Shown here: positions 19,133 through 43,009 of the stretch, one piece after another
Layout of the letters: each line of letters opens with the position of its first letter
Position numbering within the stretch: the stretch's first letter is position 1
Assembly: GCA_965197745.1 (NCBI GenBank)
Contig: CBDANS010000007.1
Location: 1,408,001-1,472,000 of the forward strand
From: Opitutales bacterium
GTDB lineage: Bacteria > Verrucomicrobiota > Verrucomicrobiia > Opitutales > PNEW01
Reading direction: 5' to 3'
Length of the DNA stretch: 64,000 nt
Notes under the pieces: model-generated
Seen by the model: the letters and a program-made list of their open reading frames with translations, nothing else
What the model was told of the DNA's origin: nothing
Databases searched by the model: none
Made by a program: the position numbers and the translations under genes

Positions 19133-20407
19133 ATGAAAAATAGATTACTGGCTTATAGATTTGCTGATATTGGAATTACCATGCTGCGCTTCCCCATATT
19201 AATTTTTATAGCTCTATTAGCGTGGAGTATTAACTTAACAGCTGCTGACTGGCCCCAGTGGCGAGGGCCGGGGAGGAATGGCATTTCTTCAGAGACTGGG
19301 TTGTTAAGGTCATGGTCTGAAGAAGGACCCGAACTATTGTGGACCACTTCCGTGGGGGTAGGGGCTTCATCTATGGCCGTCCATGACAATTACGTATATA
19401 CCATGGGTAACATAAATGATGAGGACGTTGTCATTTGTCTCAACCGTAAAACTGGAGACAAGGTATGGTCTTTTTCCTATGCATGCCCTTTCAAGAGCAG
19501 GAGGCATGAAGGGGGCACCTCATGTACTCCCACTGTCGATGGCAATCGTGTTTATACACTCAGCTACGAGGGAGATCTTTACTGTCTTGATGCCACATCA
19601 GGCAGGGCCATATGGTCCAAAAGTCTGAGGAAGGAATTTAACGGTAAACCGAATAAATTTGGATATGCGTGTTCACCATTGGTTGTCGATGATATGGTAA
19701 TCGTTGAATCGGGCGCCGATGAAGGATCGCTCCTGGCGCTCAATAAAAAATCCGGTCGCTTTATATGGAAGTCAGGTGATTACAATGCAGGGTATTCCTC
19801 CCCTGTGGCGTTTCAACTCAATGGAAAACAAGTGGGATTAATTTTCAATGGTTATGGCCTGGTCGGGCACCGACTCGAGGACGGTAAGGAACTTTGGAAT
19901 TTTAAGTGGAATACCAGTTATGACATTAATGCGGCCACACCCATTGTTTCGGGAAAATATATATTTATTTCCTCAGGCTATGGGACGGGAGGCGCCGTAT
20001 TGAATGTAGGCAGAGGCAAGCTTACCGCTGTGTGGAAATCAGAAGCCTTTGCCAATCAATTCAGCAGCAGCGTGCTATGGAAGGGGCACCTTTACGGATT
20101 TCACGGTAATGTTGGTAAACAAGATGCATCCTTGCGTTGTGTGGAGTTTGCCACCGGTAATATCATATGGGAAAAGAGAGAACTGGGTATCGGTAGCGTC
20201 ATCCTTGTTGACAAAACGCTGGTCATTCTCAGTGAAGGGGGCGAGTTGGTGCTGGCCGAAGCATCGCCTTCCGGTTACACCGAATTGGAGCGTCTTCAAG
20301 TTCTGGGTGGACGCTGTTGGGTAACCCCGGCCTATGCAGATGGCTTAGTCTACTGTCGCAACAATAACGGCAAAATGGTTTGTTATAATCTAGGGGAGAA
20401 ACTGTAA
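19133..20407 (+). CDS. secreted PQQ-like beta-propeller repeat protein
   Basis: Signal peptide, DWPQWRGP.R.G, repeated CLD..TG..IW tryptophan-docking blades. Confidence 0.88.
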   Translation: MKNRLLAYRFADIGITMLRFPILIFIALLAWSINLTAADWPQWRGPGRNGISSETGLLRSWSEEGPELLWTTSVGVGASSMAVHDNYVYTMGNINDEDVVICLNRKTGDKVWSFSYACPFKSRRHEGGTSCTPTVDGNRVYTLSYEGDLYCLDATSGRAIWSKSLRKEFNGKPNKFGYACSPLVVDDMVIVESGADEGSLLALNKKSGRFIWKSGDYNAGYSSPVAFQLNGKQVGLIFNGYGLVGHRLEDGKELWNFKWNTSYDINAATPIVSGKYIFISSGYGTGGAVLNVGRGKLTAVWKSEAFANQFSSSVLWKGHLYGFHGNVGKQDASLRCVEFATGNIIWEKRELGIGSVILVDKTLVILSEGGELVLAEASPSGYTELERLQVLGGRCWVTPAYADGLVYCRNNNGKMVCYNLGEKL

Positions 20408-20425
20408 TCCCCAACGCTTATACCT

Positions 20426-22696
20426 GTGATCCTAGCGAATATGATTGTTACCAGGTATTGCCGCATCTGGGTTGCCGCGGTTTTATTACTGGCTACCGTT
20501 GACGCCGGATATGGCGCTAAATCCTCCTCGGGGTGGTATAACTGGCGCGGCCCGGATCAAAATGGAACCTCTCCTGAAATTAATTTACCGGATAAATGGG
20601 AATTAGATGGGGCCAATCATCTTTGGACTTACCCGATATCTGGAGGAGGCACTCCGGTGGTAAGAGACGATCGGGTATATATCTTTGGCTATAGAGGCGA
20701 AGGGGAAGACCTTCAAGAGGTTCTCCTTTGCCTCAATGCTCTAAACGGTGAACGTATTTGGGAGCAGTGCTTCAATGATTTTCTCAGCGATATTGTCTAT
20801 AACCGTTATGCTATAGGTGCGCCAGCTTTGGATCCCGATACCGGGAATGTTTATCTGCAGACCAGCGCGGGACTGCTTTTAGGCTTTGATCAAAACGGTC
20901 AGCGTCTCTGGGAACATTCGATGATGGAAGAATATGGAAGGCTTACTTTTCCCAATGGGCGTACCGGTGGACCCGTCATTGACGGCGATCTGGTTATCGT
21001 CCACGGCATCACGGCCAACTGGGGCCGCAACGGACCGGCGCGGGATCGTTTTTATGCTTTTGATAAGAGGACAGGAGAACTTGTCTGGTATTCACAACCT
21101 GGAGTCCAGCCTCAGGACAGTTCGTTTTCCACCCCCGTCTTCGGCTGGATCGGTAAGCGCCGGGTTTTTTATTGTGGCACGGGTTGTGGAAACATCGTGT
21201 GCGTGGATGCGCGTACCGGGCAACCGATATGGCGTTTTCAAATGTCACTCGGCGGAGTAAATTCATCGGTAGTTTTATTTGAAAAAAACAAGCTCATTGC
21301 CATCCACGGCAAAGAGAATCTGGATACCTCGAGCATAGGTCGAATGGTCTGTCTGGAAATTCCCACGCATTTACCGGATGACCTTAAGCTTCCTTTTGTT
21401 CTCGGTCCCGATGCCGAGTTATGGCGCAATGACAGTGAGTCCTTTACGAGCTCACCGGTGCTCCAAGGTAAGCGCATTTATCTGACCGATCGCACCGGCG
21501 AACTTATATGTATAGATGCGGATACGGGAGTGGAGCTATGGAATAAGAAGCTTTCTCCGGATCAGTTGCATGCCTCGCCATTATGGGCAGATAATAAACT
21601 CTACGTGCCGATGCGCGATAGTATTTTTTATATTATCCACCCCGGAGAGACCGAGGCAAAGATCCTCAATCAGGTTAAACTCGAAGGGGTCTGCCTCGGA
21701 GCGCCGGCGGTTAACAGGGGGCGCGTCTATGTACATACGCAGGTTAATCTCTATTGTTTTGGTTCACCGTCATCGCGTAATTATAAAATTAAAAAACGAA
21801 AACCGCTTGTCAAAACCGGACCTCCTGCAGAACTTCAGATTATTCCCGCGGAATTTGCCGCGCGTTCAGGAGAAAGTTTATCCTTCACCGTATGGAACCT
21901 GGATAAAAACGGTAATCGAATAAATAAAGTAACCGATCTTAACTGGAACTCTTCCGTTCCTTCTTATGCCAATGTCGACAGTTCTGGTGTTCTTGCCATT
22001 GAACCTTCCCTTGAGGTAATTGCCGGCAGCATTAAAGCTTCGGCAGGTAATCTCCGAGGAAGCACACGGGGCCGTATCTTACCGGACCTTAATTATAAAG
22101 AAGACTTTGAATCCTTCAGGCTCGATCATAAAACGCCGGGTGGAGTGGCCTTTGCCTATCCGCCCACGCCTTGGATCGGGGCGCGACTGCGTTGGCGGAT
22201 TTTAAATAGGGAGGGGAATCAGGTGATGGAAAATACCCTTGAGCGGGTTCTCTTTCAACGTTCAACGAACTTTATCGGTCACCATAATATGAATAATTAC
22301 ACGATGGAAGCCGATGTCATGAGCGATGGCAACCGCCGTATCATGTCTAATGTCGGGCTTATCAATCAGCGTTACCTGATCGCCCTTGTAGGTAACTGGC
22401 AGATTCTTGAAATTGTTTCCAATCATGATCGACTCAAAGTTTCCGTGCCTTTTAAATGGAAACCTAATGTATGGTATCGATTGAAAACGCGGGTTGATGT
22501 AAACGCAGAAGGGAGAGGTCTCGTGCGGGCAAAAGCCTGGGAAAAAAAATCCCCCGAACCCGATTCCTGGACAATAGAAGTCACGCATAATATAGCTCAC
22601 CAGGAGGGAGCCCCAGCATTGTACGCATTTTCACCGCAAAGCCAAAAGCATGTTTATATCGACAATCTGTCGATTACCCCTAATCAAAATAATTAG
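20426..22696 (+). CDS. secreted PQQ-like beta-propeller protein with C-terminal beta-sandwich domain
   Basis: Signal peptide, W.NWRGP, D..TG..W repeats, extra C-terminal domain of about 200 aa. Confidence 0.88.
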   Translation: MILANMIVTRYCRIWVAAVLLLATVDAGYGAKSSSGWYNWRGPDQNGTSPEINLPDKWELDGANHLWTYPISGGGTPVVRDDRVYIFGYRGEGEDLQEVLLCLNALNGERIWEQCFNDFLSDIVYNRYAIGAPALDPDTGNVYLQTSAGLLLGFDQNGQRLWEHSMMEEYGRLTFPNGRTGGPVIDGDLVIVHGITANWGRNGPARDRFYAFDKRTGELVWYSQPGVQPQDSSFSTPVFGWIGKRRVFYCGTGCGNIVCVDARTGQPIWRFQMSLGGVNSSVVLFEKNKLIAIHGKENLDTSSIGRMVCLEIPTHLPDDLKLPFVLGPDAELWRNDSESFTSSPVLQGKRIYLTDRTGELICIDADTGVELWNKKLSPDQLHASPLWADNKLYVPMRDSIFYIIHPGETEAKILNQVKLEGVCLGAPAVNRGRVYVHTQVNLYCFGSPSSRNYKIKKRKPLVKTGPPAELQIIPAEFAARSGESLSFTVWNLDKNGNRINKVTDLNWNSSVPSYANVDSSGVLAIEPSLEVIAGSIKASAGNLRGSTRGRILPDLNYKEDFESFRLDHKTPGGVAFAYPPTPWIGARLRWRILNREGNQVMENTLERVLFQRSTNFIGHHNMNNYTMEADVMSDGNRRIMSNVGLINQRYLIALVGNWQILEIVSNHDRLKVSVPFKWKPNVWYRLKTRVDVNAEGRGLVRAKAWEKKSPEPDSWTIEVTHNIAHQEGAPALYAFSPQSQKHVYIDNLSITPNQNN

Positions 22697-22706
22697 GAAT
22701 TTTTAA

Positions 22707-24269
22707 ATGAATTCAGTTAACTATTATATAGGCTTGCTTACCTGTTTGGGAATTGTGGGGATAGCATTTAACCCCGTTTTAACGATGGCTGAAGACTGGC
22801 CTATGTGGGGGCGCGATCCGAGCCGTAACATGGTCTCAATGGAAAACAACCTTCCCGAGACATTTGACCTGGGTGAAACGATAGAGGGAAGCGAAGAAAT
22901 AGACTTGGCAACAGCACAAAACATTCAATGGGTCGCCAAATTGGGATCTCAAAGTTACGGTAACCCATCGGTTTCTGACGGTCGTGTCTATATTGGGACC
23001 AATAATGAAGTGCCGCGTGATGCCGACAATATCGGCGATCGCGGGATACTTATGAGTTTTGATGAAGAAACAGGAGGGTTCCTCTGGCAGCTTATTGTCC
23101 CCAAACTTGGCGCCGGTAAAGTCAGTGATTGGGAATACATCGGGATCTGTTCATCTCCCGCGGTCATCGATAATTTTGCCTATGTGGTGACTAACCGGGG
23201 TGAAGTTTTGTGTTTGGATGTGAATGGCATGGAAAATGGGAATGATGGGCCGTTTAAAAATGAAGGGGAATATATGGCGGTCGCTGGAAAACCACCGGTG
23301 GAAGTTAAAGACAGTCATGCGGACATCATGTGGCGCTTTAACATGCGCGACGAGCTCGGTGTATTCCCACACAATATAACCAGTTGCTCCCCTTTGATGA
23401 TAGACAGCTATGTTTACTCGTCGACGTCAAATGGAGTTGATTGGTCACACACGAATATACCCGCTCCGTTTGCACCCAGTTTTGTCGTCCTGGATAAGCG
23501 CAATGGATCATTGCGCGGTGAGGAGAATTCGGGCATAAGTGCCAGGGCTCTGCATGCTTGTTGGACATCTCCGACTTACGGTGAGGTTGATGGTAAAGGG
23601 ATGATAATATGGGGTGGGTCCGATGGATGGTGTTACGGCTATGACCCCGTCCCCATAAAAAATGATGATGATTTCTTTGAGTTAAATGAACTCTGGCGCT
23701 TCGATTGTAATTCACCGCAATATCGATATAAAGATGACAAGCCATTAAGGTATGCCACCTCGAAAGGGCCCAGTGAAATAATTGCCACTCCGGTATTTTA
23801 TAAAAACCGCGCTTATATTGCCATTGGCCAGGATCCCGAACATGGGGATGGCGTAGGTCAATTAAGTTGCATTGATGTCAGCAAGCGAGGGGATATTAGT
23901 GAAACGGGTGCAATTTGGGTCTACCAGGATATTGGCAGAACAATATCAACAGTCTCCATTAAGGATGACTTGCTTTATATTGCTGAATATGCCGGTAAAA
24001 TCCACTGTCTCGACGCGGATACGGGAAAACCTTACTGGATATACGATACCCAAAGCCGCATCTGGGGCTCAACACTCGTAGCTGATGGTAAAGTATATAT
24101 CGGCAATGAAGATGGAGATCTGGTCATCTTAAAGGCGGGAAAAACGATGGGATTGATTAATAAAGTAAATTTTGGTTCTCCTATTTACAGCAGTCCCATC
24201 GTCGCCAATGGAACCTTGTATGTGGCAAGCCAAACCCATCTCTTTGCCATCAGTAAATCAGCGCCATGA
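22707..24269 (+). CDS. secreted PQQ-like beta-propeller repeat protein
   Basis: Signal peptide, DWPMWGR..SRNM, CLDA.TG..W, SSP.VA.G.LYV. Confidence 0.88.
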   Translation: MNSVNYYIGLLTCLGIVGIAFNPVLTMAEDWPMWGRDPSRNMVSMENNLPETFDLGETIEGSEEIDLATAQNIQWVAKLGSQSYGNPSVSDGRVYIGTNNEVPRDADNIGDRGILMSFDEETGGFLWQLIVPKLGAGKVSDWEYIGICSSPAVIDNFAYVVTNRGEVLCLDVNGMENGNDGPFKNEGEYMAVAGKPPVEVKDSHADIMWRFNMRDELGVFPHNITSCSPLMIDSYVYSSTSNGVDWSHTNIPAPFAPSFVVLDKRNGSLRGEENSGISARALHACWTSPTYGEVDGKGMIIWGGSDGWCYGYDPVPIKNDDDFFELNELWRFDCNSPQYRYKDDKPLRYATSKGPSEIIATPVFYKNRAYIAIGQDPEHGDGVGQLSCIDVSKRGDISETGAIWVYQDIGRTISTVSIKDDLLYIAEYAGKIHCLDADTGKPYWIYDTQSRIWGSTLVADGKVYIGNEDGDLVILKAGKTMGLINKVNFGSPIYSSPIVANGTLYVASQTHLFAISKSAP

Positions 24270-24526
24270 ATAAAAGCTCTTCCCCTCTTAAATATATCAT
24301 TTATGCCTATCTCGGCATTCTTTTCATTTTGCATCAGGACTTCTGGTTGTGGGATGACGGAAGCTTAGCATTGGGTTTTATCCCTGCGGGACTTATTTAT
24401 CATATCGGTTATTCAATAATGGCAACCCTGGGCTGGATCCTGGTCATAAAGTATGCCTGGCCCACTGAATTGGAAAATATTTCAGAGCAGCCTGCAGATT
24501 CTGCCTCCTCAACGACGGAAGCTTGA
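24266..24526 (+). CDS. DUF3311-like small membrane protein (SSS partner)
   Basis: LHQDFW.W.....LGF.P.GL.YH; overlaps both neighbours by 4 nt and precedes an SSS gene. Confidence 0.8.
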   Translation: MNKSSSPLKYIIYAYLGILFILHQDFWLWDDGSLALGFIPAGLIYHIGYSIMATLGWILVIKYAWPTELENISEQPADSASSTTEA

Positions 24527-26022
24527 TGACCCCATTAATTATTATCTCCGGTTATCTTTGTTTGCTTTTTGTCTTAGGACAGATCAGCGGTAAATTCTTT
24601 CGGGGTACGCCCAGTGATTTTTTTGTTGCCAGTCGGTCGATTGGGTCCTTCCTGCTCCTCATGTCGGTCTTTGGCACGACGATGACGGCCTTTGCCATGG
24701 TAGGCAGCACGGGTGAAGCATACCGGGTGGGCATCGGGACTTATGGCAAGATGGCATCCTGGTCTGGCCTGATACATTCCGCCTGTTTTTTCTTTATTGG
24801 AATACGATTATGGTCATTCGGGAAACGTTACGGTTATAACACACAAATTCAGTTTTTTCGAGATCGATTTGAGAGTAATGCAATCGGCATACTTTTATTT
24901 CCAATCCTCGTGTGTCTTGTCATCCCCTATCTCCTAATCGGTTTACTCGGCGCAGGGAGTCTTGTCCGTGGGGTTACCGCCGGCGCATTTCCCGAGTTGT
25001 TTGCCGAGACAAGAGGGGGGATTCCACCCGCGATAACCGCGGGCATAATTTCCATTGTTGTCCTTACCTATGTTTTGCGGGGAGGGGTGCGCAGCGCTGC
25101 CTGGGCTAATACATTTCAAACTATAGTATTTATGATCATGGGCCTCGTTGCTTTTTTTATTATTTCTTCAAAACTGGGAGGGCCTTCATCTGCCAGCCAG
25201 ATGGCTAATCCCGAGAGGATGATACGTGGTGAATCTATTCCCCCTATGCAGTTTTTTACGTACTGTTTTATTCCCCTTTCAGTAGCCATGTTTCCCCATC
25301 TCTTTCAGCATTGGCTCACCGCGAAATCGGCCCGGACTTTCCGTTTAACCCTGGTCGCTCATCCCCTTTTTATCATGATTACCTGGGTCCCCTGTATCCT
25401 CATTGGGGTATGGGCGTCAGGAGCCATCATCGACGGTGTAAAAGTGATCACTGAAGGCACTAACCCCAATGCGGTCCTGGGCATTATGGTCGGTAAACTG
25501 ACAAATCCCGTTATCGCCGGTCTCGTCTCATCCGGGGTGCTGGCCGCGATCATGTCTTCACTTGATTCGCAATTTGTCTGTTTGGGAACCATGTTTACAG
25601 AAGACATCGTCCTACATCACTTCCGTCGTTACCGGTTGTCGGAGAAACAGGTTTTATGGATGGCCCGAGGATTTATAATCCTCATTGTTCTTATAACCTA
25701 CCTTTTGTCACTTGCTAATCCGGTGCAGATTTTCTCGCTCGGGGTCTGGTGCTTCAGTGGGTTTGGTGCGCTTTTCCCCCTTGTGTTTGCGGCTATCTAC
25801 TGGAAAAGGGTAACGTGCGCGGGAGCGATCGGCTCCATCATCTGTGCAGCATTGACCTGGTTCTATTTATTTCACAAATCGGATTACGGTCTCAATCGCG
25901 GTTATCTTATCGGTGATGCCATGCCAGTCGTTTTTATTTTTTTAGCCTGCCTCATCCCACTTGTGCTCATTTCTCTTCTAAGCAAACCTCCCTCTAAGGA
26001 AACACTGAATAAATTCTTTTAG
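24523..26022 (+). CDS. sodium:solute symporter family protein
   Basis: DFF.ASRS.G, GG.R..AW.N.FQ, AAIMSSLDSQ. Confidence 0.92.
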   Translation: MMTPLIIISGYLCLLFVLGQISGKFFRGTPSDFFVASRSIGSFLLLMSVFGTTMTAFAMVGSTGEAYRVGIGTYGKMASWSGLIHSACFFFIGIRLWSFGKRYGYNTQIQFFRDRFESNAIGILLFPILVCLVIPYLLIGLLGAGSLVRGVTAGAFPELFAETRGGIPPAITAGIISIVVLTYVLRGGVRSAAWANTFQTIVFMIMGLVAFFIISSKLGGPSSASQMANPERMIRGESIPPMQFFTYCFIPLSVAMFPHLFQHWLTAKSARTFRLTLVAHPLFIMITWVPCILIGVWASGAIIDGVKVITEGTNPNAVLGIMVGKLTNPVIAGLVSSGVLAAIMSSLDSQFVCLGTMFTEDIVLHHFRRYRLSEKQVLWMARGFIILIVLITYLLSLANPVQIFSLGVWCFSGFGALFPLVFAAIYWKRVTCAGAIGSIICAALTWFYLFHKSDYGLNRGYLIGDAMPVVFIFLACLIPLVLISLLSKPPSKETLNKFF

Positions 26023-26091
26023 GGCAAACGTAACGTTTTCTTCATACCTGTCAGGTTTCCAGAACTTATCTGTTATGAATAAACGATAGAG

Positions 26092-26283
26092 GGTGGAGCG
26101 GTCTGTCTCAGCACGCTTCTTTTTTAATAATAAGAAAACACGCGGTAGGGACACCGCGTTCCACCAAGATATTGTTAGTAAATACTGGAGGGACGCGCTC
26201 CGTCGCGTCCGTTAACATCTTTTACAATAAGAAAAATAAATGATTCTCATATTATAGCGGACGCAACGGAGTGCGTCCCTCCA
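26092..26283. repeat. REP cluster: two inverted REP doublets
   Basis: Class C at 26092-26118(+) and 26140-26165(-); class A at 26185-26211(+) and 26258-26283(-); AT-rich linkers. Confidence 0.85.
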
Positions 26284-26486
26284 ACCTTCGACTTTCGATA
26301 TTTGATTTTTCCTCCATGATGATCTGTGAATTGCTAATTTTCCTGTTTCACTCTAATTTCACGATTGCAGGACGCTGGATTTCCTCAGCACGCTTCTTTT
26401 TATTATATTAACATTATGCACGACAGGCGCTTCCTACCCGTGTAAGCATTGGTAAAAGATCCTTTAATTTGCTATCATTACCTGAG

Positions 26487-27560: not shown

Positions 27561-27582
27561 ATTTAATGCTGTGCTTGGAGAG

Positions 27583-29019: not shown

Positions 29020-29025
29020 AAAAAT

Positions 29026-30192: not shown

Positions 30193-30236
30193 TTTCATTT
30201 GAGTGAATTCATCATGTATATTTCTGCCTGGGAAAG

Positions 30237-31439: not shown

Positions 31440-31460
31440 CTAATAAAACATTTTAATATT

Positions 31461-32798: not shown

Positions 32799-32808
32799 TC
32801 CTATTTCC

Positions 32809-33366
32809 ATGTCAGGTCTGATCGATGATGGTGATCCCCAATTACTCTATCCACTGTCCCTGTTTTGCGATATCAATAGTAATGAGACTCTCTCCATTCG
32901 GGGTATCGCGGATAGTGCACTAGCGGAGCCCTATCGCAGTCTGCTTGCGCATGACAGTGATATGACCACAAAATTGGAGAATTATTATCACGGCTCTATA
33001 GAACTTCTTGTGCTACAATGCAGGACTGAAGACAATTCTCACCGTCGCGAGGTTGTCTTGCGCATGAAGGAAAATAAACAACCGGTAGAATACGGGGCTA
33101 TCGATATCAATTTAGCGGCCTTTAAAGATCCTGTTCGTGGGCAAATACTCGAGGGTCATCGACCTCTGGGGGGGATATTATTAGAACATAAAATCCAGTA
33201 TAAAAGTCAGCCGAAGCTATTTATCGAACTTACATCGAATAAGGTGATAAACAATGCTCTTGGGCTCGCTCGCGCTTCGGTGCTTTATGGGCGAAGCAAT
33301 GTTTTAATAGGAGCATCAGAAGTAACATTGGCGCATATTGTTGAAATTTTGCCACCCTCGAGTTGA
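32809..33366 (+). CDS. chorismate pyruvate-lyase (UbiC)-like protein
   Basis: LL.H..DMT..LE, REV.L, PLG.IL, YGR.......I.E.LP pattern; start placed at ATG 32809. Confidence 0.68.
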   Translation: MSGLIDDGDPQLLYPLSLFCDINSNETLSIRGIADSALAEPYRSLLAHDSDMTTKLENYYHGSIELLVLQCRTEDNSHRREVVLRMKENKQPVEYGAIDINLAAFKDPVRGQILEGHRPLGGILLEHKIQYKSQPKLFIELTSNKVINNALGLARASVLYGRSNVLIGASEVTLAHIVEILPPSS

Positions 33367-33385
33367 ACGGTATCAGTAATGAGAC

Positions 33386-34645: not shown

Positions 34646-35940
34646 ACATTGTATTTCTTACCCCGGGGACGGGCAGTTATTATTGTGGTGTTTGCATGCG
34701 AGATAATGCCCTGGTATCCGCATTAAGACAACGGGGCCACGATGCAATTATGCTGCCGATTTACCTTCCGATTGTTACTGACGAACCCTCAGAAAGTAAT
34801 GAAATGCCCCTGTTTTTCGGAGGTATTAATGTTTATCTTCAACAGAAGTTCTCCTTCTTTCGTAATACCCCCCTCTGGATAGACAACTTGTTTAACAACC
34901 GAAGCTTGCTTAAATTAGCCAGTCATCGAAGTGGCATGACCCGGGGCGCCGATTTGGGAGCGATGACTGTTTCCATGCTTGAAGGTGATGATGGTCGACA
35001 AGCAAAAGAAATTAACAAACTTGTAAATTGGCTGAGAGAGCAGAAAAAACCGGATGTCATCTGCCTCTCCACTGCCTTGCAAGTGGGAATGGCGAGACAG
35101 ATAAAAAAAGATCTATCCGTGCCTGTTATTTGCTTTTTCCAGGGAGAAGACACTTTTCTTAATTCTTTTACTCAACCTTTCAGCGAGAAGGCCTGGATGA
35201 TACTCCGCGATCGCGTAAAAGACATTGATGGTTTCGTAGCCCCCAGTAACTATTTTGCTCAATTGATGAAGGAACGATTGCAGCTTAGTGAAGATCAGAT
35301 ACGCACTATTCCAAATGGAATCAATCTGGATGGGTTTTCGCCATCCTCCTCATTACCTGATCTTCCCGTCATTGGTTATCTGGCAAAAATGATGGAAAGT
35401 AAAGGGCTGGGTTTGCTTATCGACGCGTTCATTTTACTGAAAAAACGTGCGAATGGTAAGCATAGCAAGTTGCGGGTTGCAGGAGCTGTAACACCAAGTG
35501 ACAAAGCGTTTATTGAACAACAGAAACAGAAATTAAAAAAAGCCGGTTTAATTGCAGAAGTGGAGTTTATTCCCAATATTGATCGGAAATCTAAAATCGA
35601 ATTTTTAAATAAACTTACCATTTTTTCTGTTCCAGCCACTTACGGAGAGGCCTTTGGGTTATACTTAATTGAGGCTTTGGCGACAGGTGTCCCGGTGGTC
35701 CAGCCCCGTCATGCGGCGTTTCCTGAACTGATCGAGGCTACGGGCGGGGGCCGGCTCTGTGAACCAGACGATCCTGTATCGCTGGCTGACCATTGGGAGG
35801 CATTATTGGGCAACCCGGAAGAGGCCCGAACAATGGGACTCCGGGGACGCCAATCAGTGATTGATAAATATTCAATCTCGCGTATGGCTAATATTTTTGA
35901 AATGAGCTGCAAAGAAATAATAGAACCCGCGGTGGATTGA
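34642..35940 (+). CDS. glycosyltransferase family 4
   Basis: IPNGI, KGL..LI.AF, EAFGL.LIEA.A.GVPVV. Confidence 0.9.
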   Translation: MNIVFLTPGTGSYYCGVCMRDNALVSALRQRGHDAIMLPIYLPIVTDEPSESNEMPLFFGGINVYLQQKFSFFRNTPLWIDNLFNNRSLLKLASHRSGMTRGADLGAMTVSMLEGDDGRQAKEINKLVNWLREQKKPDVICLSTALQVGMARQIKKDLSVPVICFFQGEDTFLNSFTQPFSEKAWMILRDRVKDIDGFVAPSNYFAQLMKERLQLSEDQIRTIPNGINLDGFSPSSSLPDLPVIGYLAKMMESKGLGLLIDAFILLKKRANGKHSKLRVAGAVTPSDKAFIEQQKQKLKKAGLIAEVEFIPNIDRKSKIEFLNKLTIFSVPATYGEAFGLYLIEALATGVPVVQPRHAAFPELIEATGGGRLCEPDDPVSLADHWEALLGNPEEARTMGLRGRQSVIDKYSISRMANIFEMSCKEIIEPAVD

Positions 35941-36386
35941 TGGCTTACGAATTTAAATTGAAACGACAGGTCGAATTCGCCGAGACAGACATGGCCGGGA
36001 TCATGCATTTTTCGAATTTCTTTCGCTACATGGAAGAAACCGAGCACGCTTTTTTTCGATCACTTGGGATCTCAGTGCACCAGAAATCCGACAGTCAGAT
36101 TGTCGGTTGGCCTCGTGTGAATGCCAGTTGTGAGTATTCACACCCGTTGAAGTTCGAAGAAAATGTGGAAATTCATTTACTGGTTGTAGAAATTCGCCGA
36201 AGTTCGATTACCTATTATTTCCATTTTCGTAAATTGGCTGGCGATGAGAGAGTTGATGTGGCTCGGGGAAGGATCACGACTATTTGTGCCCGTTTGAATA
36301 CGAAGAATGGTGAATTGGAAACCATTGCTATTCCCCCTGAAATTCTTGAAAAAATTGACACCGTGCCTCCTGAATTGCTCGGGTGA
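35937..36386 (+). CDS. acyl-CoA thioesterase (4-hydroxybenzoyl-CoA/YbgC hot-dog family)
   Basis: V.F.ETD.AG..HF.N.FRY.E..E motif. Confidence 0.88.
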   Translation: MMAYEFKLKRQVEFAETDMAGIMHFSNFFRYMEETEHAFFRSLGISVHQKSDSQIVGWPRVNASCEYSHPLKFEENVEIHLLVVEIRRSSITYYFHFRKLAGDERVDVARGRITTICARLNTKNGELETIAIPPEILEKIDTVPPELLG

Positions 36387-36450
36387 AAGCTGAACTATAC
36401 TATCTTTATCAAATAATATAATGAAAATTAAAAATGGAGTAAGACCTAAT

Positions 36451-36963
36451 ATGAATTGGTTATTCTTTGCCTTAATGACGGTGCTTTTTTGGGGAATATA
36501 CGGAGTTTTTCTGCACTCCGGTCAAATGAATATGGCTGATCCAGAGAACGGGCGTTACAAAGCGTTTTTGTTTGTGGGAATCGCCTATTTTTTTGCCGCA
36601 ATTATCGCTCCGATAATATTGCTTTTAATTAATGATGCCTCCTGGTCGTTTCCCGGAAAAGGTGTATTCTGGTCATTAATTGCCGGGGTAACCGGTGCGA
36701 TCGGAGCCTTTTGCGTCCTTCTCGCTTTCGGAGCGAAAGGATCTCCCAGTGTGGTCATGGCTATCGTCTTTGCGGGTGCTCCCATTGTGAATGCTCTCGT
36801 AGCTCTGCTCTGGCATCCACCTTCGGGTGGGTGGGGAGCTATTCGTTGGCCTTTTTATCTGGGTATTCTGTTAGCCGCATTGGGCGGTTGCCTCGTGACT
36901 TTATATAAACCTGCTCCAGCAGTGCATGTAACCAGTAATGCGGTTGAGCAAGGGCAAAAGTGA
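36451..36963 (+). CDS. small DMT/EamA-like membrane protein
   Basis: WL.FAL....WG, S..AG..GA.G; about 5 TM helices; alternative start 36421. Confidence 0.7.
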   Translation: MNWLFFALMTVLFWGIYGVFLHSGQMNMADPENGRYKAFLFVGIAYFFAAIIAPIILLLINDASWSFPGKGVFWSLIAGVTGAIGAFCVLLAFGAKGSPSVVMAIVFAGAPIVNALVALLWHPPSGGWGAIRWPFYLGILLAALGGCLVTLYKPAPAVHVTSNAVEQGQK

Positions 36964-38237
36964 CCTCGCAGGATAGTCAACTTAAACAGCTTCAAGCCTT
37001 GCTAAAGGGGCTGGTCCCTACGAACAGTTTTTACTCCCAACGCCTGCACGATGCCGGTATTGATGAGTCGATTGGCAGCCTTGAGGATTTTTCTCAACGC
37101 ATGCCTTTCACCTATAAGTCAGAGATCGTTGAGGACCAGTCGAAATGCCCGCCCTATGGTTCAAATTTAACATTTCCCCTTGATCAATACACCCGTTTTA
37201 ACCAGACGAGTGCCACAAGGGGAAACCCGATGATTTGGCTGGACACCCAGGAGAGCTGGGAATGGATGCTAGCTAATTGGTCGGTAATCTACGCGAAGGC
37301 CGGTGTCGAACCGGGCGATAGATTATATTTTGCTTTTTCCTTTGGTCCTTTTCTCGGATTTTGGACCGCATTTGAATCAGCGACAAGGTTTGGCTGTTTA
37401 TGTATTCCGGGAGGGGGTCTGAGCAGCGTAGCAAGGATAAATGCGATCATTCAACATAAGGTGAAGTTTCTTTGCTGCACACCTACTTATGCGTTGCATT
37501 TAGCTGAAGTAGCCGTTGCCGAGAATATCAATCTGAAGGACTCAACCGTTGAAACCATAATTGTCGCGGGTGAACCGGGCGGCAGTTTGCCCCATGTCTG
37601 CGATCGCGTCACTGAATTATGGAATGGCGCTCATATGTTTGATCATTACGGGATGACTGAAGTCGGACCTGTGGCATATGAGGATCATGAGCGCGAGGGA
37701 ATAATGCGTATCATTGAAAGCAGCTACTTTGTCGAAGTTGTAAACTCACAAACCGGTAAAACCGACCAATCCGGTGAAGTGGGTGAGCTGGTCTTAACGA
37801 CCCTGGGCCGGTTGGGGTCACCACTATTGCGCTATCGAACCGGTGATTTAGTTAAGCCCATTAAAATGGAAGAGAAAGGAAGTTCAGGAATAGCCCTGGA
37901 GAAAGGTATTCTTGGACGTGCCGACGACATGATCGTGGTGCGTGGGGTTAACCTCTATCCTAGCGCGGTCGACGATGTCATAAGATCGTGTCAGGATATT
38001 GTCGAATATCGCGTGAACATAAGTCGCCTTGAGTCTCTTTTGGAGGTATCGATCGAAGTGGAACTGGATAAGCATACAAAAAGCATGGATCCCGTGCGCC
38101 ATATAGAAAATGCTTTAAAGACTGCTTTTTCTCTCCGCATTCCGGTAATGATAGTAGAGCCCGGGTTACTTCCACGCTTTGAGATGAAAGCTCAGCGCTG
38201 GCAGTACCCGGACCCGGATAACCCGAGGGGAGCGTAA
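36960..38237 (+). CDS. phenylacetate-CoA ligase (PaaK)-like protein
   Basis: PFT.K, TSATRG.P, AGEPG, YGMTEVG, GELVLT.L, RYRTGD, GRADDM.VVRGVN.YP. Confidence 0.88.
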   Translation: MTSQDSQLKQLQALLKGLVPTNSFYSQRLHDAGIDESIGSLEDFSQRMPFTYKSEIVEDQSKCPPYGSNLTFPLDQYTRFNQTSATRGNPMIWLDTQESWEWMLANWSVIYAKAGVEPGDRLYFAFSFGPFLGFWTAFESATRFGCLCIPGGGLSSVARINAIIQHKVKFLCCTPTYALHLAEVAVAENINLKDSTVETIIVAGEPGGSLPHVCDRVTELWNGAHMFDHYGMTEVGPVAYEDHEREGIMRIIESSYFVEVVNSQTGKTDQSGEVGELVLTTLGRLGSPLLRYRTGDLVKPIKMEEKGSSGIALEKGILGRADDMIVVRGVNLYPSAVDDVIRSCQDIVEYRVNISRLESLLEVSIEVELDKHTKSMDPVRHIENALKTAFSLRIPVMIVEPGLLPRFEMKAQRWQYPDPDNPRGA

Positions 38238-38240
38238 ATA

Positions 38241-38936
38241 ATGCTGCTGGAGATTAATAAAGTTGATAAAAGTTACGATGCGCCGAAAGGAGGAGAACGC
38301 ATTGAGGTATTGAAAGGTATTAACCTGACAGTGGATGCTGGCGAAGCCATTGCTATCGTCGGTCCTTCCGGTTCCGGTAAAAGCACCTTGTTGAATATCA
38401 TAGGTGGTTTAGACTGGCAGACGTCCGGGCAGTTACTGATCGAGGGGCAGAATATTTTACATTTTAATGAAAGGGAGTTGGCCTCTTTCCGCAATAGAAC
38501 AGTGGGTTTTGTTTTTCAGTTACATCACTTGCTGCCACAATGCAGCATACTGGAAAATGTTTTGATTCCCTCGATTGCCCGTAAGGGCTCCCTTGACCGT
38601 GAAAAAATAATACAGCGTGCGGAGCACTTGCTCGAAGCGGTTCATTTAGAGCATCGCCTCACCCATCGGCCGGGAGAGCTTTCGGGCGGCGAACGTCAAC
38701 GCGCCGCGGTAGCGCGGGCGCTTATAAATGATCCCAAACTTCTCCTTGCCGATGAACCTACCGGTTCACTCGATAGAGAATTTTCAGAAAGTATGATCGA
38801 ACTTCTAACTGAATTAAATCGAAGTATGAAAGTAGCATTGATCATGGTTACTCATGCCGCCGATCTCGCCGCACGCATGCAGCGTGTTTTTGCATTGGAA
38901 GACGGCAAGTTGAATCTTCAGGACATTAATCCATGA
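38241..38936 (+). CDS. ABC transporter ATP-binding protein (LolD/MacB type)
   Basis: GPSGSGKS, LSGGERQR, LLADEPTG.LD, VTH. Confidence 0.95.
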   Translation: MLLEINKVDKSYDAPKGGERIEVLKGINLTVDAGEAIAIVGPSGSGKSTLLNIIGGLDWQTSGQLLIEGQNILHFNERELASFRNRTVGFVFQLHHLLPQCSILENVLIPSIARKGSLDREKIIQRAEHLLEAVHLEHRLTHRPGELSGGERQRAAVARALINDPKLLLADEPTGSLDREFSESMIELLTELNRSMKVALIMVTHAADLAARMQRVFALEDGKLNLQDINP

Positions 38937-41900
38937 GCTCATGGACGATCGTTTGGCGTAGCCTGCTTTATTATAGGCGCACCCATTTAGGAGTAATCCT
39001 CGGAACGGCGTTAAGCGCGATGGTTCTCATTGGCGCGCTGTTAGTTGGTGACTCCGTAAAATCTACCCTTAAGGAACTGGCGCTGTTACGTATTGGAGAG
39101 ATCGATGCATCCCTCTATTCTTCTGACCGTTATTTTCGAGAAGATCTGGCTGATGATTTGAAATTAGCCTGGGAGGAAGCGGTCACGATTGCTCCCGCTG
39201 TCATGCTGCAAGGGAATGTTACGACACCCGACAGGGCCAGTCGCGCAAATGATGTACAAATACTGGGAGTCGACAATCGGTTTTGGCAGCTTTCTCCCTC
39301 GGGTAAATCACAACCTTTTACTTCGTTAAATGAAATACATATAAACACAAAGCTGGCCACTAAACTGGATGTCGCGCCAGGTGATACCTTGGTCTTGCGT
39401 GTAGAGAAGCCGGGGAATCTTTCACGCGATGCTCCCTTGTCAGGAGCTCATGATTCGATAATTGCTATTCGCGGGGTAATTAAGTCGGTTGTCTCAGATG
39501 AAGATTTTGGCCGATTCGGTCTACAAGCGAGCCAGATCCCATCCCCTAATGTTTACCTGTCGCTTCCACTGATTCAAGAAAGATTAGACTTAAAAAAGAA
39601 AGCAAACATGCTCTTGGTGGGGAGTCCCGGAAGTCATTCCATTACCGCAGATCGAGTTAATCTCATACTGCAGAAACAATGGCAGCTGGAGGATATGAGC
39701 TTAAGTATTCGTGAGCTGATGCCAGCCAGGGGATGGGAGCTTCGATCAAATCAGGTATTTCTCGATCCTTCTATTACTCGGGCGGTGCACGCCATACTCC
39801 CCAATCGCACCGATGTTCTGACTTATTTTGTAAACGAAATTCGCACTCGTGATCGAGTCACGCCTTATTCTTTTGTCACCGCCTTTAATCCAACTGTGAA
39901 CAGTTTTATACCGGATGAATTAGGGGAGGATGAAATTATTATTAACCAGTGGCTGGCCGATGACCTCGATGTGAAAATTGGTGAGTCGATCGAACTGCGT
40001 TACTATGTCGTGGGTGAACGGCGGAATCTTGTAGAGCGCTTGCGTCAATTTCAAGTGCGTCATATCCTCCCTATGACTCATCCTGGCATCAACCTTTCGT
40101 GGATGCCCGATTTCCCTGGACTGGCAGACGCAGAAAATTGTCGCGACTGGGAACCGGGTATTCCCATAGAATTGGATCGCATCCGAGACAAAGATGAAAC
40201 GTATTGGGACCAATACCGCGGTACACCCAAAGCCTTCATAAATCTTTCAAGGGGACAGGAAATGTGGTCAAATCGTTGGGGGAATTTAACAGCCATCCGC
40301 TATCAACAGGAGATTATAACGCGTGAAATATTTACTGCTTCTCTTCGAGACCAGATGGATATCACTCGAGTCGGATTATATTTTATTCCTCTTCGTGAGG
40401 AGACACTTGCTGCGACCCAATCTCCCATTGATTTTGGACAACTGTTTATTGGCTTCAGTTTCTTTATAATAACAGCTTCAGCCGTGCTTACGGGTCTGTT
40501 ATTTGTTTTTTCGGTGGAACAGCGAAATCACGAAACAGGATTATTACTGGCCGTGGGGTTTCGGGGCAAAGAGACGGGTCAACTAATCTTACGGGAAGGG
40601 GCCATCCTGAGTGTGATCGGCAGTTTGATTGGTGCGGGTGCGGCTGTAATATACACCCACATTGTAATTTACGCACTTTCGACGGTATGGCGCGATGCCG
40701 TGGGCGCGGTTGTTTTTTCATTTAAGGCAATGCCCTCAACCATAGGGGGAGGCATTATTTTAAATATAATAATAGCGCTCTTTGTTATGTGGCTTGCCAG
40801 TCGTAAGCAATTGCGTCGACCCGTAAGTCAACTATTAGGAGCCGAAGGGCTTTATGAGCAATTGGATTCGAGAGGGACAAAGATTCATAATCGAAGAGCC
40901 ATTATGATAAGTGTTCTATCTTTTCTGCTCGCTCTCTCAATAATCTACCTTGTCGGTGTTATAGGAAAGGGACATGAAGCTGAGATATTTTTTGGCGCAG
41001 GCAGTTTATTATTAATTTCCGGAGTCGCTTTATTTTCTGCGTGGTTGGGGAGGATATCACAATCAGGTGGGGGGGTGTCAGGTATCTCCCATCTCGGGCA
41101 ACTGAACGTGACGCGGCGACGCGGGCGCAGCCTGGCCACTACGGCAGTACTCGCTTGTGGGGTCTTTATGGTAGTGGCTGTAAATACTTTTCGTCATGAC
41201 CCATTAAAATCAGCTTCCGAACGCCGTTCGGGAACGGGCGGATTTGCCTTGATTGGGGAATCGACAATACCTGTTTACCACGATCTGAATGAAGCATCCG
41301 TTCACCAATTGTTTGTTCTTAATAAAACGATCATGGAAGGTGTAGCATTTGTGCCTTTCCGTGTTTTGAACGGTGACGATGCCAGTTGTTTAAATTTAAA
41401 TCGCGCGCAAAGACCCAGACTCTTAGGAGTGAAACCCGATGACTTGCATGAACGTGGAGCATTTCGATTTTCATCACTCAGCGAAAGCATCTCACCCGCC
41501 GATGGTTGGCGTATCCTGGAGACTGAAATATCCGACAGAGTAATACCGGCAGTCGCTGATGAGGTCACAGTAAAATGGGCCCTGGGGAAGACGCTGGATG
41601 ATACTTTAACCTTTAAGGATGAACGAGGACAGCCATTCGAGTTACAAATTGCAGGGATTGTTGCCGGTTCAATATTGCAAGGTAACCTGATTATTTCGGA
41701 AGAACAGTTCATTGATAAATTCCCATCGCATTCTGGTTATAAGGCGTTTCTAATTGATACCCCTATAGAAAACGCGGAAACTGTGGTGACGCATCTTGCA
41801 CAATCGCTTGAGAATCTGGGGTTGGAACTGACACCTGCGTGGATTCGTCTTGCGGAATTCCAGAGCATAGAGCACGCCTATATTTCTATCTTCCAAGTCC

Positions 41901-42256
41901 TGGGTGGACTCGGATTGCTCTTGGGCAGCGTTGGATTAGGTGTTGTTGTGGCGCGCAATATGTTGGAGCGCCAGCGTGAGTTTGCTTTGCTCGCAGCCGT
42001 GGGTTTTCGCAAGGGTCTTTTGAGAAGACTTGTTTTTATCGAACACCGGTGGCTTATAGTCTGGGGCCTCCTCATTGGTATTTTGACGGCGCTTGTTGCG
42101 GTGTGGCCAACCCTGCAATCGCGGGGCGCTTACTTTCCTTTCCTGGAGATGGTTATATTAATATTAGCACTTTCTCTAGGGTGTATTCTCTGGACCTGGA
42201 TAGCAGCCTACACAACCTTACGGGGTAGTCTGATCGTCAACTTGAGATCCGAGTAA
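38933..42256 (+). CDS. FtsX/MacB-like ABC permease (duplicated domains, 1107 aa)
   Basis: Two R..E.GLL.AVGF TM modules with large periplasmic domains. Confidence 0.9.
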   Translation: MSSWTIVWRSLLYYRRTHLGVILGTALSAMVLIGALLVGDSVKSTLKELALLRIGEIDASLYSSDRYFREDLADDLKLAWEEAVTIAPAVMLQGNVTTPDRASRANDVQILGVDNRFWQLSPSGKSQPFTSLNEIHINTKLATKLDVAPGDTLVLRVEKPGNLSRDAPLSGAHDSIIAIRGVIKSVVSDEDFGRFGLQASQIPSPNVYLSLPLIQERLDLKKKANMLLVGSPGSHSITADRVNLILQKQWQLEDMSLSIRELMPARGWELRSNQVFLDPSITRAVHAILPNRTDVLTYFVNEIRTRDRVTPYSFVTAFNPTVNSFIPDELGEDEIIINQWLADDLDVKIGESIELRYYVVGERRNLVERLRQFQVRHILPMTHPGINLSWMPDFPGLADAENCRDWEPGIPIELDRIRDKDETYWDQYRGTPKAFINLSRGQEMWSNRWGNLTAIRYQQEIITREIFTASLRDQMDITRVGLYFIPLREETLAATQSPIDFGQLFIGFSFFIITASAVLTGLLFVFSVEQRNHETGLLLAVGFRGKETGQLILREGAILSVIGSLIGAGAAVIYTHIVIYALSTVWRDAVGAVVFSFKAMPSTIGGGIILNIIIALFVMWLASRKQLRRPVSQLLGAEGLYEQLDSRGTKIHNRRAIMISVLSFLLALSIIYLVGVIGKGHEAEIFFGAGSLLLISGVALFSAWLGRISQSGGGVSGISHLGQLNVTRRRGRSLATTAVLACGVFMVVAVNTFRHDPLKSASERRSGTGGFALIGESTIPVYHDLNEASVHQLFVLNKTIMEGVAFVPFRVLNGDDASCLNLNRAQRPRLLGVKPDDLHERGAFRFSSLSESISPADGWRILETEISDRVIPAVADEVTVKWALGKTLDDTLTFKDERGQPFELQIAGIVAGSILQGNLIISEEQFIDKFPSHSGYKAFLIDTPIENAETVVTHLAQSLENLGLELTPAWIRLAEFQSIEHAYISIFQVLGGLGLLLGSVGLGVVVARNMLERQREFALLAAVGFRKGLLRRLVFIEHRWLIVWGLLIGILTALVAVWPTLQSRGAYFPFLEMVILILALSLGCILWTWIAAYTTLRGSLIVNLRSE

Positions 42257-42272
42257 ACAATAAGTAATATAA

Positions 42273-42974
42273 GTGATTATGGACACTCATAACTGTTCAC
42301 TGACTGTCCTTGAGGTAATATTTTGTTTCTGTTTACTATTATTTACTTCTGTTCAAGGTGCTAATTTGGACGAACAAATCGAATTAAGTGATGAAAGCTG
42401 GGAGCAGATTTATAAAAACGACTTTTCAGCAGATAATAGAGACGGAATGTTTGTATTAGGGGGAGACTTTAAGATCGCAGAGAGTGAGTACGGCCCGGTT
42501 CTTGTATTGCCAGGTGAACCATTAGGTGATTTTGGCGTACTTTTTGGTCCGCGACACCAGGATAGTGTGGCTGTCCGCGCGCGTATCTTATCCAATTCAA
42601 TGGGAAGACGGATGCCTGCTTTCAGTATCGGACTTAATGGGCGCTCCGGTTACAGGATACGCGTATCGGCGAGTGCCAAAGCTGTAGAACTTCTCAAAGG
42701 GAACGAGGTCTACGCAACCGCTCCATTCAAGTGGTCACCGGAAAGTTGGACATGGTTGCATCTGCAGGTTGTTAAAGCGTCAAAGAAGCGGTGGATAATT
42801 ACTGGTAAAGTTTGGTTGGATGGGAGTAGTGAACCTCCTGATTGGATTGTTCAAATGGAAGATCTCACCGGTCCACAGAAGGGCAGGGCATCAATTTGGG
42901 GAATGCCGTTCTCGGGAAAGGATATCCTATTTGACGACGTCAGTATTTATCTTAAGCGGGTGGATGAGGAATAA
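42273..42974 (+). CDS. secreted beta-sandwich protein, paralog of the C-terminal domain of 20426-22696
   Basis: Signal-like N-terminus; shares PFKW.P..W, K.W...S.EP..W and ...D..SI with that domain. Confidence 0.75.
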   Translation: MIMDTHNCSLTVLEVIFCFCLLLFTSVQGANLDEQIELSDESWEQIYKNDFSADNRDGMFVLGGDFKIAESEYGPVLVLPGEPLGDFGVLFGPRHQDSVAVRARILSNSMGRRMPAFSIGLNGRSGYRIRVSASAKAVELLKGNEVYATAPFKWSPESWTWLHLQVVKASKKRWIITGKVWLDGSSEPPDWIVQMEDLTGPQKGRASIWGMPFSGKDILFDDVSIYLKRVDEE

Positions 42975-43009
42975 TCCATCAGGACGAGTGAAAGTATCAT
43001 GCAAAAAAG

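Follow-up and report, generated by a model that had tools for sequence, protein, structure and literature searches.

What would a bacterium gain by keeping enzymes for aromatic acids in one run of genes with secreted beta-propellers that resemble pyrroloquinoline quinone (PQQ) proteins? The question is raised by a stretch of 64,000 nucleotides (nt) from an Opitutales bacterium, which we call the window (G000:C7:1408001-1472000; the host genome, G000, is 4.45 Mb and 92% complete), and within it by a gene cluster at 19133-42974. The system encoded there is real, undescribed and widely conserved. We suggest, with rather more doubt than confidence, that it is a two-tier, lineage-wide envelope system which would supply a small-molecule cofactor or ligand to secreted propellers of the PQQ-like kind, a family that is expanded in carriers. 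These propellers look less like bystanders than like what the system exists for.

A preliminary description, made from the letters of this DNA, had reported a run of about 19 co-oriented genes with six 4-nt overlaps between stop and start codons. Our re-check of the open reading frames (ORFs) finds all 19 on the + strand, and the overlaps at 24266, 24523, 34642, 35937, 36960 and 38933 are exact. The remaining intergenic gaps are 3-44 nt, apart from one of 446 nt, filled with repetitive extragenic palindromic (REP) elements, 3' of the symporter gene; here the run is broken. The family assignments of that description agree with searches of Pfam, NCBIfam and the PDB, the UbiC-like one being the weakest (2nwi, E 4e-4). 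It had also seen no polyketide synthase, nonribosomal peptide synthetase, carrier protein or precursor peptide. Our scans of the 19 proteins likewise gave no domain of the first three kinds, and the cluster leaves no room for a precursor peptide gene save in the REP-filled gap, where the ORFs have just 20-58 amino acids (aa); no such gene was sought in the rest of the genome. The 19 genes are as follows.

19133..20407, + strand: propeller A, secreted, PQQ-like, of the variable type expanded in genomes, a candidate client (PF13360, E 4e-37)
20426..22696, + strand: propeller B, secreted, with an additional C-terminal beta-sandwich (Pfam; near GriC in 47 of 80 loci)
22707..24269, + strand: propeller C, secreted, eight-bladed, a candidate enzyme or loading protein (structure model, invariant polar face)
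24266..24526, + strand: small DUF3311 membrane protein (PF11755, E 2.4e-5, below the curated cut-off)
24523..26022, + strand: sodium:solute symporter (SSS), an importer (PF00474, E 1e-36)
26487..27560, + strand: aryl-acid adenylating enzyme of EhpF/GriC type (EhpF structures 3l2k/3hgu, E 2e-48, residues 14-357)
27571..29019, + strand: GriD/EhpG-like reductase partner with an aldehyde dehydrogenase (ALDH) fold (PF00171, E 2e-15)
29026..30192, + strand: iron-containing alcohol dehydrogenase, Fe-ADH (PF00465, E 4e-47)
30237..31439, + strand: propeller D, secreted, core, candidate periplasmic partner of FtsX (Pfam; adjoins GT4-LolD-FtsX)
31461..32798, + strand: HemN-like radical S-adenosylmethionine (SAM) enzyme, a candidate class C methyltransferase (HemN, E 1e-31; NocN, E 3e-23)
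32809..33366, + strand: protein with a putative chorismate-lyase (UbiC/Rv2949c) fold (profile match to 2nwi)
33386..34645, + strand: flavoenzyme of the ChlB4/CndH/PltA halogenase group (E 2e-55 to 6e-52)
34642..35940, + strand: GT4 glycosyltransferase, core marker (N-terminal CxxC, donor site)
35937..36386, + strand: hot-dog (4HBT-like) thioesterase (PF13279, E 3e-14)
36421..36963, + strand: small five-helix DMT/EamA membrane protein (PF00892, E 5e-4, hydropathy)
36960..38237, + strand: PaaK-like aryl-coenzyme A (CoA) ligase (PaaK structures, E 2e-45)
38241..38936, + strand: LolD-like ATP-binding cassette (ABC) ATPase, core (TIGR02211, E 7e-81, below cut-off)
38933..42256, + strand: single-chain double-FtsX permease of a Type VII ABC transporter, core (two PF02687 matches, 10 predicted helices)
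42273..42974, + strand: secreted beta-sandwich protein, the last gene (resembles the C-terminus of propeller B)

The start of the GriC-like gene is most likely the ATG at 26487, giving the 357-aa database protein P0001, and that of the UbiC-like gene the ATG at 32809.

That these genes belong together, as the preliminary description supposed, is borne out by other genomes. The GriC-like protein has at least 8000 relatives (8000 of the 8000 candidates scored), the best 120 of them with 67-100% identity. A genome scan with it gave at least 593 stretches; from the matches listed we took 80 loci, many on short contigs, whose names are mostly those of Verrucomicrobiota, with Planctomycetota and Armatimonadota besides. 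Propeller C is found no more than 10 kb away from GriC in 51 of these loci; the corresponding counts are 47 for propeller B, 41 for the ALDH-like gene, 33 for SSS and 29 for Fe-ADH. All 19 genes stand in the same order in G001 and G012, and 18 of the 19 in Planctomycetales bacterium ZRK34 (G268), so the set is co-inherited across phyla; a gene order shared to this extent is more than chance. Clustering of ORFs over the 80 loci gave no additional conserved gene beyond one of the major facilitator superfamily (MFS).

GriC is carried by 7 of 41 near relatives and by 4 of 201 genomes of a phylum-wide sample. In a sister order (that of G158) it occurs in 104 of 151 genomes, mostly as a single copy in three families (38/39, 33/38 and 31/31); the figures are 0/38 for a family whose genomes are mostly small and 0/3 for one more family. 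Among Planctomycetota, the phylum of G268, 42 of 151 genomes have it, 30 of these at E<1e-100. The distribution is thus patchy between lineages and near-complete within some. This is not a rare metabolite cluster; it is common to many Verrucomicrobia and Planctomycetes.

The cluster genes stay in the same genome even where the cluster is broken up. We compared 54 GriC-positive genomes (46 from the 80 loci, picked for longer contigs, and 8 others) with 26 genomes of the window's own order that have no GriC, each at least 90% complete and at least 2.3 Mb. GT4 and propeller C are both present in 54/54 positives and 0/26 negatives, although the best propeller C match in G238 may be a paralog. The HemN-like gene is present in 50/54 against 0/26, the PaaK-like gene (E<1e-90) in 48/54 against 0/26, and the halogenase-like gene (E<1e-100) in 47/54 against 0/26, with weaker paralogs of the last in 9 negatives. 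The single-contig genomes G235 and G261 have no close PaaK or halogenase orthologs, and in G261, G272 and G554 a more distant gene of the halogenase family adjoins the HemN-like gene.

Part of the system reaches further than GriC. A sample of 80 of the 151 Planctomycetota genomes, made up of the 30 strong GriC positives, 4 of 12 distant matches and the first 46 negatives, has GT4 in 30/30 positives and in 6/50 others. G418, G421 and G427 have no GriC, and in them propeller D, GT4, LolD and FtsX are packed into one block (the GriC-free loci are L151, L155, L157-L158 and L160-L161, on G418:C124, G421:C58, G427:C53 and G460:C3). Its neighbours there are of another kind: NuoEF-like and GltD-like flavo-iron-sulfur (Fe-S) genes directly upstream in G418 and G421; membrane Fe-S genes (Fer4_5) in G418, G427 and G460; an NHL protein; a polyprenyl synthetase with DUF116 in G418 and G460; and genes of squalene-cyclase/prenyltransferase fold in G418. 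In the sister order, GriC, GriD, an ortholog of the HemN-like enzyme and propeller B are all missing from G286 and G309, yet both genomes retain GT4 and propeller C, and G286 also keeps the series thioesterase-LolD-FtsX-last gene. Because the GT4/ABC/propeller-D unit is found without GriC and with other partners, it forms the more widespread core, and the aromatic enzymes a module that can be exchanged for others. Propeller B travels with the latter; its ortholog is absent from 5/5 GriC-negative, GT4-positive genomes examined.

Genomes that carry the core tend to have a greatly expanded set of PQQ-like propellers. As a measure we used first-look candidates for PF13360, which are a proxy and not copy numbers, a weakness of everything that is built on them; secreted PQQ-like propellers reach about 200 such candidates per genome. 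The 54 GriC-positive genomes (here G000 replaces G277) have 14-121 candidates, with a median of 57, and the 26 negatives 0-14, with a median of 4.5. Within the window's own order the medians are 24 (7 positives) and 4.5 (the 26 negatives). Per Mb, the Planctomycetota medians are 12.3 with GriC and GT4 (n=30), 16.0 with GT4 alone (n=6) and 5.1 with neither (n=44). In the sister order, GriC-negative, GT4-positive G286 and G309 have 107 and 120 candidates and three GriC-positive genomes 22-94; five GriC-negative genomes there have 1-11, and GT4 was found in 0 of the 3 tested. A strict rule that propeller expansion needs GriC was rejected on account of G286 and G309, which lack GriC and GriD at 107-120 candidates, and it was this that led us to the GT4 core.

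Carriers have an expanded family of candidate client proteins, G431 and G459 being exceptions, as do peptide-derived cofactor systems. In the case of mycofactocin, the biosynthetic genes, among them those of a radical SAM enzyme and a glycosyltransferase, go together with an expanded client family. The likeness is one of logic only: the window cluster has no precursor peptide, it has a GT4 and not a GT2 enzyme, its chemistry is that of aromatic acids, its putative clients are periplasmic, and it includes an exporter.

Could the propellers simply use PQQ? Six motifs of the quinoprotein active site, including the vicinal CC disulfide and the PQQ/metal site, were sought, and propellers A-D each have 0 of the 6. 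All six are present in the host's own XoxF-like protein (C3:7767-9497). The propellers were judged by motif search only, a pairwise alignment with XoxF being too divergent for reliable mapping of residues. PqqC scored over its cut-off in 0/10 carriers and PqqE in 0/5, in a search that had no positive-control genome and in which G000 itself is 92% complete. Dehydrogenases of Planctomycetes-Verrucomicrobia-Chlamydiae (PVC) type (TIGR02604) were considered as obligatory clients and rejected, none scoring over the cut-off in G000 or G012.

The XoxF-like methanol dehydrogenase stands in an operon of its own (G000:C3:5485-13514) with an ORF for a TonB-type receptor upstream; since PqqC and PqqE were not found in G000, this genome probably scavenges PQQ for the XoxF-like enzyme. 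A weak PqqC match at G000:C6:1435330-1437341 is the gene directly 5' of two further ORFs. We take it to be TenA/CADD-like and the two ORFs to be folP- and folK-like; the gene is probably a supply route for p-aminobenzoic acid.

In propeller C the invariant polar residues gather on one face. Its model (predicted local distance difference test, pLDDT, 91.6) has the fold of a BamB/PQQ-type propeller, and among its polar or aromatic residues 27 of the 104 in the top loops and 3 of the 53 in the bottom loops are conserved in at least 98% of 54 sequences (p=0.002), the faces having been assigned by strand order and not from coordinates. Quinoproteins bind PQQ at the top face of the propeller. Propeller B has conserved polar loops, and propeller A begins with an N-terminal hydrophobic stretch. 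The conserved surfaces of B and C beside the variable A fit a division into fixed machinery and variable clients. One more gene of the A type lies outside the cluster:

44243..45790, - strand: second gene of propeller-A type (E 9e-56 to propeller A; same position in G001)

Its ORF probably extends upstream of the true start.

Turning to the aromatic enzymes, the window's GriC/GriD-like pair is predicted to be an aryl-acid reductase dependent on ATP and NAD(P)H. The ALDH-like partner was placed by PF00171, by a GRSC motif kept across 51 ALDH-like sequences and by its proximity to GriC. The HemN-like enzyme has CxxxCxxC at 64 and a HemN-like C-terminus, as class C radical SAM methyltransferases do; the models for HemN, HemW and ChuW give similar scores, none of which reaches its cut-off. 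The UbiC-like assignment is the weakest of the set. In the Atlas the protein is placed (0.97) with clusters where 17% of members carry PF04345 and 11-15% carry PF01947 (overall 11-19%); the window protein has no Pfam match over the cut-off, 1 of 12 family members matches PF04345 (E 0.025), and the fold predicted from its single sequence reaches a pLDDT of just 33. In most loci that carry it the gene is flanked by the HemN-like and halogenase-like genes on its two sides.

Halogenases have a set of known motifs: GxGxxG, a region around the catalytic lysine, WxWxIP and FxDPxxSxG. The flavoenzyme of the window has all of them (GxGxxG, FPKK, WxWxIP, FxDPxFSxG), with Lys74 conserved in at least 95% of 17 sequences. 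Its closest solved relatives are ChlB4, 3e1t, which we take to be CndH, and PltA; the non-halogenating QhpG, LodB and GoxB match it as well (E 1e-24 to 1e-35). It may either halogenate or oxidise an aromatic ring. A plasmid search with the protein gave only relatives below 60% identity, the best listed having 33-37%. A CoA ligase and a thioesterase would make sense in the same cluster because the ChlB4/PltA-type group acts on tethered aromatic substrates. The thioesterase gene stays beside LolD-FtsX in GriC-negative G286. The small DMT/EamA protein is strongly conserved across 22 sequences. DUF3311 is found in 31 of the 80 loci, almost always immediately 5' of the SSS gene; MFS transporters occur in 13 loci, in some of them replacing SSS.

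As for the core, the permease is a protein of 1107 aa which has no significant match to the YbbP structures, the only hit being YtrF (E 0.003). Relatives of propeller D have an N-terminal hydrophobic stretch in 32 of 34 cases. Co-folding of propeller D with the two periplasmic domains of FtsX scored 0.58, against 0.04 for the best control, and so lends weak support to a complex, since scores of 0.60 or less came from 18 of 157 solved complexes, and of 215 mismatches 2 passed, each with a score in that range. At least 90% of the contacts agree between runs, and the partners have a pLDDT of at least 88. The protein encoded by the last gene is related to the beta-sandwich at the C-terminus of propeller B (E 3e-9) but stands alone; its gene comes after FtsX in G001, G012, G236 and G286, and its Atlas neighbours are clusters resembling 3-keto-disaccharide hydrolases. 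A Pfam scan of the 19 proteins found no outer-membrane channel, MacA-type adaptor or TesA-type hydrolase.

How might these parts work together? The UbiC-fold protein would convert chorismate to 4-hydroxybenzoate, or else the DUF3311/SSS pair would import 4-hydroxybenzoate or a relative. The PaaK-like ligase would attach the aryl acid to CoA, the ChlB4/CndH-type flavoenzyme would halogenate or oxidise the ring of the tethered acid, and the hot-dog thioesterase would free the tailored acid. The EhpF/GriC-GriD pair could then take the acid through an acyl-AMP to the aldehyde, Fe-ADH could reduce this to a benzyl alcohol (a 4-hydroxybenzyl compound), and the HemN-like enzyme could add a one-carbon unit; the order of these steps is a guess. 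The CxxC-GT4 enzyme would attach a sugar, giving a glycoside, and the LolD/double-FtsX transporter would lift the product out of the inner membrane and pass it to propeller D. Its finishing or loading may fall to propellers B and C, whose surfaces are invariant, and the variable paralogs of propeller-A type may be clients that use it in place of PQQ. Lineages without the supply tier would take up the molecule from elsewhere or rely on a different supply module.

Confidence differs between the two halves of this scheme. Judged from the chemistry of the families, the sequence of hydroxybenzoate supply, CoA-tethered tailoring, reduction to aldehyde and alcohol, one-carbon addition and glycosylation is rather probable. 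The hand-over to propeller D by the Type VII ABC transporter and the use of a cofactor or ligand by the propeller family, which are read from anatomy, are possible and somewhat more doubtful than otherwise. The boldest version, which we consider rather unlikely, is an undescribed redox cofactor of PVC and allied bacteria, derived from chorismate, glycosylated and possibly halogenated, that would serve tens to more than 100 'empty' PQQ-like periplasmic proteins per genome and be delivered across the inner membrane and loaded by a dedicated Type VII ABC transporter, while other lineages would couple a prenyl/Fe-S module to this machine. A cofactor, should the product be one, would be new, and so would this role of Type VII ABC transporters.

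No system that we know of combines these parts, as the preliminary description had stated; in the open PMC and bioRxiv literature no account of either the cluster or the expansion of propellers was found. GriC/GriD (grixazone, Streptomyces griseus) and EhpF/EhpG (D-alanylgriseoluteic acid, AGA; Pantoea/Enterobacter agglomerans Eh1087) likewise pair an adenylating enzyme with an adjoining ALDH-fold partner. GriC makes the acyl-AMP that GriD reduces to an aryl aldehyde (PMC10179220), and EhpF-O lead from phenazine dicarboxylate to AGA (PMC3175449). Unlike those clusters, the 19 genes of ours include none for a phenazine or 3-amino-4-hydroxybenzoate core, and the GriC-like clade is far more conserved (60-84% across phyla) and stands amid propellers, GT4 and a Type VII ABC transporter. 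In Planctomycetales strain 10988, BaaA/BaaB, assigned to 3,5-dibromo-p-anisic acid, are encoded by chorismate-lyase-like and flavin halogenase-like genes (10.1101/723874). There, and in Bmp5/Bmp6, the likeness to the window is that a chorismate-lyase-like gene adjoins a halogenase-like one, in the Baa case in a PVC bacterium. BaaB is given as about 44% like Bmp5, whereas the best solved relatives of our flavoenzyme are ChlB4, CndH and PltA; the Baa model as described there has no CoA ligase, reductase, glycosyltransferase or ABC transporter, all of which are present in the window cluster. YbbAP, a Type VII ABC transporter of E. coli, extracts molecules from the inner membrane for TesA (PMC12646458) and resembles the LolD-like ATPase and double-FtsX permease; here the candidate partner is an eight-bladed propeller and not a TesA hydrolase, and the permease is linked to GT4. 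The window propellers share the eight-bladed PQQ-type fold with PQQ quinoproteins, BamB and the cofactor-free tetrathionate hydrolase. They differ from the quinoproteins in lacking the site motifs, in the failure to find PqqC/E in carriers and in propeller C's own invariant face. One paper on PQQ binding (PMC13088180) deals, in its available part, with E. coli and P. putida only. By homology, then, the system resembles a Gri/Ehp reductase joined to a Baa-type supply and an extractor of YbbAP-TesA type; it is a member of none of these, nor of the PQQ systems.

Several observations speak against a cofactor or ligand for the propellers. The best fold matches of propeller C are to BamB, a non-catalytic scaffold, and among 22 relatives of propeller A mainly structural Trp and Gly are conserved, which fits binding or scaffolding as well as catalysis. 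G431 (87 candidates) and G459 (106) are rich in propellers, and neither GT4 nor FtsX was found in either; these genomes are either incomplete or bear a different propeller subfamily. G560 has 85 candidates (8.4 per Mb) without GT4, and GT4-positive G418 merely 17. The complete set of 19 genes occurs in G000 and G012 beside only 16 and 14 candidates (in G000 about 7 proteins), so that few clients must justify the pathway. The genomes are related to each other, which overstates the p-values, and all 26 negatives come from one order. A shared lifestyle could drive both the core and the number of propellers. In a further genome without GT4, G424, FtsX is split at contig ends.

The propellers might instead serve an envelope glycoconjugate: GT4 would glycosylate a hydrophobic aglycone (aryl here, prenyl or terpenoid elsewhere), the Type VII ABC transporter would extract it, and the propellers would carry it or scaffold its delivery to the outer membrane or to surface proteins. 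The prenyl genes beside the core in G418 and G460 and the squalene-cyclase/prenyltransferase-fold genes in G418 would suit this, as would the BamB-like fold, the weakly supported complex of propeller D with FtsX and the YbbAP-TesA precedent (PMC12646458). Taken alone it leaves unexplained why dozens of paralogous propellers track the core, as well as the Fe-S/NuoEF genes of the other variant, and the cluster has no lipid carrier or acyltransferase; we regard it as unlikely. The preliminary description had proposed one carrier-free path to a halogenated or methylated, reduced and glycosylated hydroxybenzoate; such a product might be released as a specialised metabolite, a signal or antibiotic. 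The enzymology stands, the enzyme classes being borne out by homology, most weakly the UbiC-like one, and where the UbiC-like gene occurs, it mostly has the HemN-like gene on one side and the halogenase-like gene on the other; a chorismate lyase with a brominase has a planctomycete precedent (10.1101/723874). Less well supported is the single pathway to an exported metabolite. The system is near-universal and mostly single-copy in three families, its core persists without the aromatic enzymes and tracks propeller expansion, some carriers, the single-contig genomes G235 and G261 among them, gave no close orthologs of the halogenase-like and PaaK-like proteins, and the 19 genes include no outer-membrane channel or MacA-type adaptor, which makes this proposal quite unlikely.

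Another thought is a redox relay across the envelope, in which NAD(P)H-consuming modules (GriC/GriD/Fe-ADH here; NuoEF-, GltD- and NapGH-like Fe-S proteins in the variant) would pass electrons through the CxxC of GT4 and a Cys pair of FtsX, or through an aromatic shuttle, to the periplasmic propellers. C15/C18 of GT4 are conserved in at least 95% of 47 sequences, GriC-negative variants included, periplasmic C403 and C819 of FtsX in 67/69 and 69/69, and the NuoEF-/GltD-like and Fer4_5 genes stand directly upstream of the core or near it in the genomes named above. GT4, however, retains its nucleotide-sugar site (R/K/E/E in 41, 36, 40 and 46 of the 47 sequences), both FtsX cysteines are periplasmic and may form a structural disulfide, and we know of no precedent for electron transfer by a Type VII ABC transporter; we think a relay very improbable. 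We give as little credence to uptake followed by catabolism or detoxification, with SSS importing environmental aromatic acids that the reductase, ADH and GT4 would turn into excreted glycosides. DUF3311/SSS or MFS genes adjoin GriC and TonB receptors stand in or beside the cluster (G193, G040), but the putative chorismate-lyase fold, the radical SAM enzyme and the halogenase-type flavoenzyme are of biosynthetic classes, and there are no ring-cleavage enzymes among the 19 genes.

Propeller expansion is here tied to one single-copy gene set, and in the carriers tested propellers are very numerous although no PQQ biosynthesis genes were found and the cluster propellers have no PQQ motifs. Even on the weaker readings these bacteria, which are abundant in soil and water, have a conserved envelope pathway that had gone unrecognised, possibly with routine enzymatic halogenation. 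The gene set offers a direct test of what the propellers require, in phyla for which genetic tools exist.

The break in the run of genes is occupied as follows:

26023..26486, no strand: intergenic gap of REP palindromes, outside the conserved system (repeats shared with 43001-44093)

The palindromes, of several types, resemble the set at 43001-44093 that flanks a REP-associated tyrosine transposase (43473-43958), and REP copies have entered the operon between the symporter and the GriC-like gene. At this junction in G012 and G040 the two genes overlap or almost touch. Because of the REP-filled gap, the 19 genes may form two transcripts rather than one; a scan of the gap gave 1 promoter-like and 2 terminator-like signals against 1.7 and 0.7 in shuffles, near the shuffle counts.

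A few neighbours may be mentioned. TonB-dependent receptors lie beside the cluster in the window (45633-47717, + strand), inside it in G193 (L105:12337-14559) and immediately 5' of propeller B in G040 (L098:15460-17580); it is possible that they take up the product or a precursor. A UbiA prenyltransferase gene follows the cluster in G420 (L164:18970-19917), and a menaquinone-biosynthesis gene (PF02621) lies near it in G554 (L166:15326-16183); each was seen once and may be chance. Two genes upstream of the cluster, at 16218-18344 on the + strand, the window encodes an OvoA ovothiol synthase with both NCBIfam domains over cut-off, and G001 has a 715-aa ORF at a similar position. An autotransporter-repeat gene at 12574-14681 (- strand), in a stretch of 57% GC, is split into two overlapping ORFs of 482 and 243 aa, likely by a frameshift or an assembly error. 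The sole Rfam match within the window is a tRNA gene at 52569-52655 on the + strand.

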